A stretch of 64,000 bases of DNA, from assembly GCF_003334765.1 (NCBI RefSeq), contig NZ_QOWT01000012.1, one strand, 5' to 3'. A program made the position numbers. Positions 43,401 through 46,400 of this stretch are shown piece by piece (position 1 is the stretch's first letter; every line of letters begins with the position of its first letter). The stretch comes from Escherichia coli. GTDB lineage: Bacteria; Pseudomonadota; Gammaproteobacteria; Enterobacterales; Enterobacteriaceae.

Positions 43401-46400
43401 CCGTTGCTCCATTGCATGGGCGTGCGGCTGTTGTCACGGGATTTACTGGCGAGGATTGCCAATAACTCGTCGGCATCACGCCCATCGTTGCGCAGCTCGG
43501 CAAACATATTGAGGCTCTCCACGTCGCGATAGTCAGTAATGCGCGTGAAATGCGGGTTGGTCATGCCAATCTCTTCGCCCTGGTAGATATACGGCGTTCC
43601 CTGCATGCCATGCAGCACCATCGCTAGCATTTTTGCCGCAGGCACGCGGTATTCACCTTCATCACCAAAGCGAGAAACAATGCGCGGCTGATCGTGGTTA
43701 CACCAGAACAAGGCATTCCATGCTACGTTGTGCATTCCTTGTTGCCAGTGGCGGAACAATGTTTTCAACGCCACAAAGTCAGGTTTAGCCAGCGTCCATT
43801 TTTCACCACCGGGATAATCGACCTTCAGGTGATGAAAATTAAAGGTCATCGATAATTCACTGCCTGCCAGTGCCGCGTATCGCTGGCAATGCTCAAGGCT
43901 GGTGGAGGACATTTCACCTACGGTCATTAACCCGCGTGGCGTAAACACATCGCGGTTCATCTCGTGCAAAAACTCGTGTGCTCGTGGCCCGTCGGTGTAG
44001 AAGCGACGCCCGTCGCCATCCAGGTCTTCAGGGAAACGCGGGTCTTTGGAGATCAGATTCACCACATCCAGGCGCAACCCATCGACCCCACGATCGGCCC
44101 AGAATTCACAGACTTTTTTCAGCTCTGCGCGTACCGCTGGATTCTCCCAGTTGAGATCCGCCTGTTCTGGTGCAAAGAGATGCAAATAGTACTGTTCGCT
44201 TTCCGCATGCCAGCGCCACGCACTACCGCCAAATTTTGAACGCCAGTTATTCGGTGGCGTTTCTGGTTCGCCATCGCGCCAGATATAAAACTGGCGGTAA
44301 GGGCTTTCTTTGTTCAGCGCCTCGCGAAACCAGGCATGTTGGGTAGAGGTATGGTTAAACACCATATCGAGAATGATACGAATCCCGCGCGATTTTGCCT
44401 GCGTCACCAGTTCGTCAAAATCGTCCAGCGTGCCGTAGGTGGGATCAATCGCCGTATAGTTCGCTACGTCGTAACCGTTATCGACCTGGGGAGAGACATA
44501 AAAGGGGGTTAGCCAGATGGCATCAACGCCCAGTTTATGCAGATAGTCCAGGCGTTGGATAACGCCACGTAAATCGCCGGTACCGCTACCCGTGGTGTCC
44601 TGAAAACTCTTTGGATAAATCTGGTAGATAACGCCGTTTTGCCACCAGTGGGGAAGATTAGTCATTACGTTATTCCTGCGAATGCGAGGGGGCGCAATTG
44701 CGCCCCGAAGAAAATTAAACAATGTCCAGCGTGCCCAGGCGGTATTTCCGCTGATAGATAAACGAGGTGAGTACAATCGGGATGATGATGGCGATAGCCA
44801 TTGCCAGCGCAAACACCTGCCAGTAGCTCGGTTGAATCGAGAGAATTCCCGGCAGGCCGCCTACGCCGATGCCATTCGCCATAACGCCGTTCAGGCCGCA
44901 TAGCAATCCTGCCAGACCAGAACCAATCATCGCGCACAGCATCGGGAAGCGATATTTCAGGTTGATGCCGTACATTGCAGGCTCAGTGACCCCAAGCCAG
45001 GCGGAGATAGCGGCAGGCACGGAGATCTCGCGTTCATTGTGCTTGCGGCTGGAAATGATAATGCCTATCACGGCGGAGCCCTGAGCGATATTCGACAGCG
45101 CAATCAGCGGCCACACTGGCGTACCACCCATGCTTTGAATCATCTGCAAATCAATAGCAAGCGTGGTCTGGTGTACACCGGTGATCACCAGCGGGGCGTA
45201 CAGGAAGCCAAACAATGCTGCGCCAATAGGTGCAAAGCTGCCGGTCATCAGGTGACGTACCGCAAAGGCAACGCCATCGCCAATCATGCGTCCAAACGGA
45301 CCAATCAGCGCATGGGCGAGGAACACCGCGAGGATCAGCGAACAGACGGGCACCACCACCAGATAGAGGTAATCCGGCACGATGCGTTTAAGGCGAGTTT
45401 CAATAACGCCCAGCGCCAGCCCGGCTAACAGTGCCGGGATCACCTGCGCCTGATAGCCTACTTTGGCGATGCTGAACATGCCAAAGTCCCACACTTCCGG
45501 CAGCTGCTGCCCGAGCAGATAAGCGTTCATCAGCTGTGGAGAAACCAGCGTTACGCCAAGTACGATACCAAGGATCGGCGTGCCGCCCATTTTTTTCACC
45601 GCTGACCAGCAAATCCCGACCGGCAGGTAGAAGAAGATCGCTTCACCGATCAACCACAGAAAATCGTAGATCGTTTGCAGGGAAGGGTACATTTGCGCCA
45701 GCGTTTGACCGTTGCTCATGGGCAAATCGCCGATCACATTGCGAAAACCGAGGATCAAACCGCCGCTAATCAACGCGGGCAGCAACGGGAAGAAGATCTC
45801 CGCGAAATGAGAGATCAACTGCTCATGCCATTTCATATTCTGCCGGGCGGCTTTTTTTACCTGCTCTTTATCAACCTGCGCCTGTCCGGTTGACGCAATC
45901 AGTGCTTGATAGTAATCACCCACATTGGTGCCAATCACCACCTGAAATTGCCCGGCATTGGTGAAACAGCCTTTCACCATGGGGAGTTGCTCAATTTCTT
46001 TCGGTCTGGCATTGGCCGGTTGGTTGAGGACAAAGCGCAGGCGAGTAATACAGTGGCTCACCGTCGCAATATTGCCGCGCCCGCCGACCAGTTCAATCAA
46101 CCGATCGATATCCGTTTGGTTTATTTTGCTCATCATAAAGCCCCATGGCAGATGACATTTTTGGTTGGCTGCAGAATATATTGCGCGGAAAAATTTAAAA
46201 ACGGGAACGTTCCCGAAACGCAGCGAAGATCACAATTTATCGTTCAGGAAACGATCAGGACAGGGTGGCGGGGATGATGATTTGTTGCGGTTCGCTGCGC
46301 CCGGTTACCTGTGCGATCAATTGGCAGGCCGCCTGGCGTCCAGCTTCGGCGTAACCAGGATCTACGGTGACGATCTCCGGATGAAGGAATTTCATTAACG

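Follow-up and report, generated by a model that had tools for sequence, protein, structure and literature searches.

The 14-bp palindrome situated between treR and treB in this stretch of the Escherichia coli genome is very probably the operator through which the trehalose repressor TreR acts on the treBC promoter, as judged from the sequence of the locus and its relatives. Operator and repressor have been described since the 1990s, as have the inducer (trehalose-6-phosphate), the anti-inducer (trehalose) and the dependence of treBC on CRP. The operator is thus already known, with entries in RegulonDB, EcoCyc and RegPrecise, and the identification is correct but ordinary. It matters little beyond annotation, and what it adds is a clean comparative picture comprising a 12-bp recognition core, a rigid promoter module and a possible co-variation between operator and repressor. 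The dyad had been proposed as a TreR operator in the treBC promoter in an earlier note on the same DNA. That proposal is supported by the identities of the genes, the LacI-type character of TreR, the invariance of the core and its linkage to treB.

The locus and the palindrome

The window (the whole stretch of 64,000 nucleotides that was analysed) carries treR, treB and treC in the arrangement given in Table 1, where the identities of the three genes are taken from NCBIfam equivalog models and RefSeq annotation. The 3.6 kb around the palindrome are 100% identical to several RefSeq chromosomes, in which the annotation reads treC, treB, treR, mgtL and mgtA. The interval singled out in the earlier note, 46137-46254, is exactly the treR-treB intergenic region. 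Among 5,420 E. coli genomes, most share this spacer with 100% identity and 5,131 match it at 99% or better, so variation within the species is uninformative.

Table 1. Genes and sequence elements at the treR-treB locus (coordinates are those of the window)
Feature	Coordinates	Strand	Description
treR	47202..46255	minus	LacI-family trehalose repressor; TIGR02405 equivalog, 589 bits (cutoff 357); PDB 4xxh; Pfam
treR-treB intergenic region	46254..46137		118 bp between co-oriented genes
Probable cAMP-CRP site, 22 bp	46216..46237	minus	TGTGA half at 46234-46230; right half CTGCG weak; assignment of bases putative
TreR operator (very probable)	46202..46215		CGGGAACGTTCCCG, 14-bp perfect palindrome in E. 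coli; conserved core GGGAACGTTCCC at 46203-46214
Predicted -35 of treBp	46196..46201	minus	TTTTTA; abuts the operator; TT(TT) at 46201-46198 conserved
Predicted -10 of treBp	46173..46178	minus	TATTCT, pattern TAnnCT
Predicted treB transcription start	46165..46166	minus	Conserved C/A, then a purine; 7-8 nt past the -10
treB Shine-Dalgarno	46141..46144	minus	GGGG; GAGG in most relatives (alignment)
treB	46136..44715	minus	PTS trehalose EIIBC component; first gene of the regulated operon; NF008236, 973.8 bits
treC	44665..43010	minus	Trehalose-6-phosphate hydrolase; second gene of the operon; TIGR02403, 881 bits

At 46202-46215 the window reads cgggaacgttcccg, with halves and centre CGGGAA-CG-TTCCCG and the central CG at 46208/46209. 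The symmetry ends at 14 bp, positions 46201 and 46216 both being A. Measured from the treB ATG (46136), the palindrome occupies the bases 66-79 bp upstream; the treR stop codon (46255) is 40 bp away from it. Its position, its perfect symmetry over 14 bp in E. coli, its distances to the ATG and its place just past the 3' end of treR are therefore as the earlier note had given them. Operators of the LacI/GalR family are as a rule inverted repeats of even length centred on a CG step, and the palindrome conforms to this. Within the family such even, CG-centred palindromes are bound by the helix-turn-helix and hinge helix of a dimer (PMC4052901), and binding through the hinge helix is also described for the LacI family elsewhere (bioRxiv 10.1101/2025.04.02.646877).

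Taken alone, a 14-bp palindrome is statistically unremarkable. The window contains four perfect ones, where 3.9 are expected under a uniform model and 5.1 +/- 2.1 under a first-order Markov model. Function must consequently be argued from context and comparison. The prior for such a palindrome falling inside the 118-bp intergenic region is ~0.7%. When the window was searched for the palindrome with up to three mismatches, six matches were obtained where 2.9 are expected; there was no other exact copy in the window and no further match near the promoter.

Conservation of the core and the promoter module

Scanning for TreR with one genome per species yielded 80 Enterobacteriaceae loci, in which the protein is 83-99% identical to that of E. 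coli. In 76 of the 80 loci treB follows treR, and the exact 12-mer GGGAACGTTCCC is present just upstream of treB in all 76. The related loci, 464 kb in total, contain 77 copies of the 12-mer where 0.03 are expected, and all but one of these copies are just upstream of treB. Column conservation was measured on a gap-free alignment of 75 distinct sequences anchored on the 12-mer. The core is invariant in all 75, with 2.0 bits in every column, whereas neighbouring columns hold 0.1-0.6 bits. Besides the 12-mer (46214-46203), the blocks that are invariant or nearly so are TGTGATC at 46234-46228, TTTC at 46218-46215, TT(TT) at 46201-46198 and TAnnCT at 46178-46173; the columns that separate these blocks likewise range from 0.1 to 0.6 bits across the 75 sequences. 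Upstream of TGTGATC and downstream of the -10 the DNA varies in both sequence and length and is largely unalignable, and the 5' untranslated region of some genera contains REP-like insertions and insertions of ~70 nt.

The outermost pair of the palindrome behaves differently from the core. Position 46202 is A in 66 of the 75 sequences and G, the E. coli state, in only 8. The conserved core is therefore 12 bp long, and perfect 14-bp symmetry is found outside E. coli in a minority of the related sequences only. The element had been described as a 14-bp one in the earlier note; this holds for the symmetry in E. coli but not for the conserved recognition sequence.

The remaining blocks appear to be the parts of a CRP-dependent promoter. 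TGTGATC supplies an invariant left half of a CRP dyad (TGTGA-N6-TCACA), the right half of which is poor in the enterics and matches at three of five positions in Aeromonas. The centre of this CRP-like site, at 46226.5, falls at about -60.5/-61.5 when numbered from the predicted +1. That treB is a CRP target is known from its recovery by genomic SELEX (PMC3105977). A consensus sigma-70 scan of 45900-46500 found no promoter; the scan missed the -10 because the -35 is poor, and the -10 was recovered from conservation instead. Among the 75 sequences its columns show T at 46178 in 72, A at 46177 in 75, C at 46174 in 65 and T at 46173 in 75. The predicted -35 and -10 are separated by 17 bp, and the predicted start has a purine at 46165 in 73 of the 75 sequences. 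The Cappable-seq supplements contain no entry for a treB start.

Numbered from the predicted start, the operator extends from about -50 to -37 with its centre at -42.5/-43.5, and it adjoins the predicted -35 on one side and the CRP site on the other. Horlacher and Boos (1997) reportedly obtained a TreR footprint covering a palindrome directly upstream of the treB -35. The sequence has the dyad at such a position, so the dyad would match the published operator. A full-text literature search turned up no paper stating a mapped TreR site. In each of the 75 sequences TGTGAT and the 12-mer stand 20 nt apart, and the block aligns without gaps through the -10. On the strength of these alignments, the CRP site, operator, -35 and -10, each as predicted, form a rigid module whose spacing is exact to the base in Enterobacteriaceae, Proteus and Aeromonas.

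The 464 kb of enteric loci were also examined for a second operator, and near-matches with up to two mismatches were found there at below the chance rate, so that none is evident in the enterics. The RegPrecise table lists one TreR site per genome in Enterobacteriales. A paper that cites RegulonDB, by comparison, gives treBC two TreR operator sites (PMC3505978). The two RegulonDB entries, as against the one conserved dyad, may be half-sites, or one of them may be a weak E. coli site that conservation does not reveal.

Linkage of the dyad to treB, and more distant relatives

Rearranged loci indicate to which of the two genes the dyad belongs. In Enterobacter chuandaensis (L037) and E. quasihormaechei (L047) treR and treB are separated by an insertion of ~1.7 kb with two ORFs that are encoded on the opposite strand, and the 12-mer remains beside treB. 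In the four loci in which treB is not adjacent (L004, L005, L029 and L035), nothing resembling the 12-mer was found downstream of treR.

More distant orthologues were collected by tblastn of TreR against a plasmid collection, in which some records are the size of chromosomes. Aeromonas caviae and Proteus mirabilis, with TreR proteins 50% and 44% identical to that of E. coli, have treR and treB in tandem and carry the 12-mer without a mismatch, again offset by 20 nt from TGTGA. One base past the 12-mer the sequence is TTGCCG in Aeromonas and TTGGAT in Proteus. In the two Erwiniaceae, Duffyella gerundensis and Pantoea soli (L084 and L085), treR and treBC are divergent. The sequence upstream of treB is TGGAACGTTCCA in Duffyella and CGGAACGTTCCA in Pantoea soli, each lying one base closer to TGTGAT. 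The core GGAACGTTCC is retained in both, so that 10 bp of the 12-bp core are common out to the Erwiniaceae. Aeromonas and Pantoea soli also have a second, weaker site 46-54 bp downstream. Taken together, the loci with insertions, those in which the genes are not adjacent and the divergent arrangement identify the dyad as an element of the treB promoter: it segregates with treB, not with treR.

The TreR protein

TreR consists of a LacI-type helix-turn-helix (residues 6-51) and an effector domain of the periplasmic-binding-protein-like Peripla_BP_3 type (Pfam); a structure of the effector domain is available (PDB 4xxh). The recognition-helix segment GVGKSTVS is invariant in E. coli, Proteus, Aeromonas and the Erwiniaceae, in agreement with the GGAACGTTCC core that their operators share. 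A single change occurs in the helix region, R23 to L. It is limited to the two Erwiniaceae, and it is in their operators that the outer G/C of the 12-mer has been lost. This co-variation of TreR R23 with the outer G/C is suggestive, and it probably reflects a single evolutionary event. If it is real, it could guide the engineering of specificity in LacI-family sensors.

Alternative functions of the palindrome

One alternative to an operator is a Rho-independent terminator of treR. The minus strand can form the hairpin CGGGA-ACGU-UCCCG followed by UUUUUAAAUUUUU, ahead of the treB promoter, and this is the only terminator-like site that a consensus scan finds in 45900-46500 (five pairs, four of them GC, a loop of four and a T run). 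It lies 40 nt after the treR stop codon, in a spacer where no stronger terminator is visible. The hairpin is weak, however: the E. coli sequence gives -6.3 to -7.0 kcal/mol and the common variant -5.4. Its closing pair is broken (C-A) in 66 of the 75 sequences. All 12 core bases, including the four of the loop, are invariant and show no compensatory changes, which is the signature of recognition of a sequence and not of a structure. Position tells against a terminator as well. Insertions leave the element beside treB, loci without an adjacent treB lack it downstream of treR, and in the Erwiniaceae it lies upstream of treB, with transcription of treR leading away from it. The T run is accounted for as the predicted -35, its counterparts being TTGCCG and TTGGAT in Aeromonas and Proteus, and it is absent in the Erwiniaceae. 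Finally, in Term-seq of MG1655 the interval from 4466176 to 4467576, which includes the palindrome (4466246-4466259), is free of recorded 3' ends (PMC7815308 supplements), although low expression of treR could hide one. A function purely as the terminator of treR is accordingly very unlikely.

Somewhat less remote, but still unlikely, is a double function, in which the TreR operator would also limit read-through from treR into treBC by a TreR roadblock, a weak hairpin or both. A single 14-bp sequence would thereby serve two ends, shutting off initiation at treBp and shielding the operon from the transcript of the constitutively expressed repressor gene. Such a function would suit two co-oriented genes only 118 bp apart, between which no separate terminator convinces: a small hairpin directly behind the treR stop codon occurs in some lineages only. 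The palindrome with its T run also fits a lenient terminator pattern. Against it, the T run is already accounted for by the -35, the tandem treR-treB arrangement is not universal, and Term-seq places no 3' end at the dyad, with the same reservation that a weakly expressed treR could be missed. It is highly improbable that some other regulator, either a LacI/GalR paralogue or an unrelated factor, binds the dyad while TreR acts elsewhere. E. coli does have many LacI-family paralogues that use CG-centred palindromes. Yet this is the only conserved dyad of LacI type in the treB regulatory region, near-matches being below chance, and it accompanies treR-treB in every lineage sampled, the rearranged ones included. 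The outer operator base, moreover, changes together with residue 23 of TreR, and in RegPrecise this regulon has a single TreR site in each genome. That the palindrome is a functionless chance occurrence would accord with the number of 14-bp palindromes in the window, which is at the chance rate (4 against 4-5 expected). The comparative data refute this reading to the point where it scarcely deserves consideration: the 77 exact 12-mers in 464 kb stand against 0.03 expected, 76 of them are upstream of treB, and the sequence is invariant amid diverged flanks.

Other folds in the spacer were considered as candidates and rejected. One, as a separate treR terminator, was the small hairpin behind the treR stop codon, TCGTT-tcctg-AACGA (46254-46240), which is strong in Leclercia and Silvania. 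Its mean minimum free energy over the 75 sequences is -3.1 kcal/mol as compared with -2.6 for shuffled sequences, and 53% of the sequences fold better at this hairpin than their own shuffles, so as a general feature it does not surpass shuffled DNA. In the other, CGUUUCC (46252-46246) would pair over a long range with GGGAACG of the operator; z is -1.36 for this fold, and the upstream arm shows no conservation.

Proposed mechanism

With the palindrome read as the TreR operator, a TreR dimer would sit on it with a helix-turn-helix in contact with each GGGAAC half-site and the hinge helices placed at the central CG. Bound TreR would occupy the DNA between CRP and sigma region 4 that is needed by the alpha-CTD and RNA polymerase, a steric mechanism that we infer. 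Occupancy by TreR would in this way block initiation at what would be a CRP-dependent class I promoter. Import of trehalose by TreB yields trehalose-6-phosphate, which binds TreR and weakens its hold on the operator; with cAMP-CRP present, relief from TreR then allows treBC to be transcribed. Expression of treBC is described as requiring the absence of glucose, with TreR repressing the operon unless trehalose-6-phosphate is present (PMC3938415), and trehalose is described as an anti-inducer of TreR (bioRxiv 10.1101/2025.04.02.646877). The statement in the earlier note that TreR represses treBC and is relieved by trehalose-6-phosphate is thus found in the literature (both of these sources). Direct binding of the repressor that responds to the effector is, according to such secondary citations, reported by Horlacher and Boos (1997).

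Comparison with known systems

The closest counterpart is the treBC operator of E. coli K-12 (treBp in RegulonDB and EcoCyc; the TreR(1) regulon in RegPrecise), which agrees in locus, sequence, repressor, inducer logic and adjacency to the -35, shows no substantive difference and is very probably this same element. More broadly, lacO-sym, the purR box, rbsO, galO and cre are likewise even, CG-centred palindromes in or beside a core promoter. The half-site GGGAAC is specific to TreR, in contrast to the other operators of the LacI/GalR family, and the single operator upstream of the -35 of enteric treB differs from the multiple operators that support looping in lac or gal. What the palindrome shares with Rho-independent terminators is a short inverted repeat containing GC, with a T run behind it when the coding strand of the upstream gene is read. 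It differs from them in its weak stem, its lack of covariation, the absence of a recorded 3' end, and in not being tied to the 3' end of treR.

Another likeness comes from outside the enterics: GGGAACGTTCCC also appears in a paper on Streptomyces scabiei (PMC9953190). It is presumably the box of CebR, a LacI-family regulator of the cellobiose/cellotriose regulon. Should this assignment be right, a LacI-family protein of another phylum uses nearly the same dyad. CebR and TreR are not orthologous and differ in both effector and regulon, and the likeness would be convergent within the motif space of the family.

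RNA 3' ends and hairpins around treB

The spacer between treB and treC carries a hairpin, GGGGCGCAATTGCGCCCC, whose core is the perfect palindrome GGCGCAATTGCGCC. Term-seq data for MG1655 place a very abundant 'primary' 3' end at position 4464728 (window ~44684; PMC7815308, supplement 1), just past this hairpin and without a U tract. The hairpin may serve within the operon as a stabiliser or processing element, leading to differential expression of treB and treC.

A further Term-seq 3' end lies on the minus strand at MG1655 4466176 (window ~46132), 5 nt inside the coding region of treB. 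It scores 1.4 as an intrinsic terminator, and its Rho score of 0.86 indicates no significant Rho termination (PMC7815308). An end at this position implies that the treB 5' UTR gives rise to a small transcript of ~35 nt. The same region contains two tandem ATG codons (46131-46136), the first of which is the annotated treB start (MMSK...). In the alignment, the second (46133-46131) is kept in all relatives and the first is missing from several species; judged from this comparison of sequences, the second ATG may be the true start of treB.

A small hairpin directly follows treR. Folding of the relatives' sequences indicates that it is not a general feature across the family. Far stronger counterparts, with predicted energies of -9.7 to -10 kcal/mol and followed by TTTATT, are found in Leclercia and Silvania. 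The hairpin may represent a lineage-specific treR terminator that overlaps the flanking DNA upstream of the CRP site.

Positions of hairpins, dyads and insertions in the window and in treR loci of relatives (L-numbers)
Feature	Locus	Position	Strand	Organism	Remark
GGCGCAATTGCGCC, perfect 14-bp palindrome	Window	44691-44704	minus	E. coli	One of four such palindromes in the window
GGGGCGCAATTGCGCCCC, hairpin	Window	44689-44706	minus	E. coli	In the 49-nt treB-treC spacer; core is GGCGCAATTGCGCC
TCGTT-tcctg-AACGA, small hairpin	Window	46240-46254	minus	E. coli	Immediately 3' of treR stop
~1.7 kb insertion	L037; L047	1614-3415; 3446-5308		Enterobacter chuandaensis; E. quasihormaechei	Between treR and treB promoter
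GGGAACGTTCCC, second exact copy	L041	1618-1629		Trabulsiella odontotermitis	~880 bp upstream of treR
GGGAACGATACC, second TreR-like dyad	L083	4052-4063		Aeromonas caviae	Imperfect
CGGATCGTTCCA, second TreR-like dyad	L085	2811-2822		Pantoea soli	Imperfect

Arrangement of the locus in relatives

The insertion separating treR from the treB promoter in two Enterobacter species contains two ORFs on the opposite strand, of 159 and 230 amino acids, the shorter being an Hcp-like candidate as judged by eye from its translation alone. Other insertions, REP-like (GCCGGATG...) or of ~70 nt, occur in the treB 5' UTR of Citrobacter (L006, L011) and Kluyvera (L074-L081), between the -10 element and the Shine-Dalgarno sequence; the promoter module upstream of them is intact in the alignment. 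Two records are titled Proteobacteria bacterium (L043) and Chryseobacterium sp. 18061 (L055). The TreR encoded on the L055 contig is 85% identical to that of E. coli and its treR-treB arrangement is of the enterobacterial type; this record is probably mislabelled or contaminated.

In the Erwiniaceae Duffyella gerundensis (L084) and Pantoea soli (L085), treR and treBC are carried on megaplasmids of 0.55-0.58 Mb and diverge from a common region of 206-234 bp. The distance from the operator to the TGTGA half-site is 1 bp shorter in both. The spacing from TGTGA to the -10 element appears unchanged in Duffyella, which suggests that the CRP site and core promoter form the fixed frame there. The best -10 candidate in Pantoea soli lies ~2 bp further off.

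Additional operator-like dyads are also present. The exact copy of GGGAACGTTCCC in Trabulsiella odontotermitis, for which the chance expectation over the whole locus set is ~0.03, has AT-rich surroundings and adjoins a truncated mgtA fragment, with neither an ORF of at least 70 amino acids nor a TGTGA partner at the site. It may be a relic of rearrangement. The imperfect dyads of Aeromonas caviae and Pantoea soli are found on the downstream side of the main operator, at a distance of 46-54 bp, which places them at or past the predicted start. Their occurrence and placement suggest that some lineages possess a two-operator arrangement that is absent from enterics.
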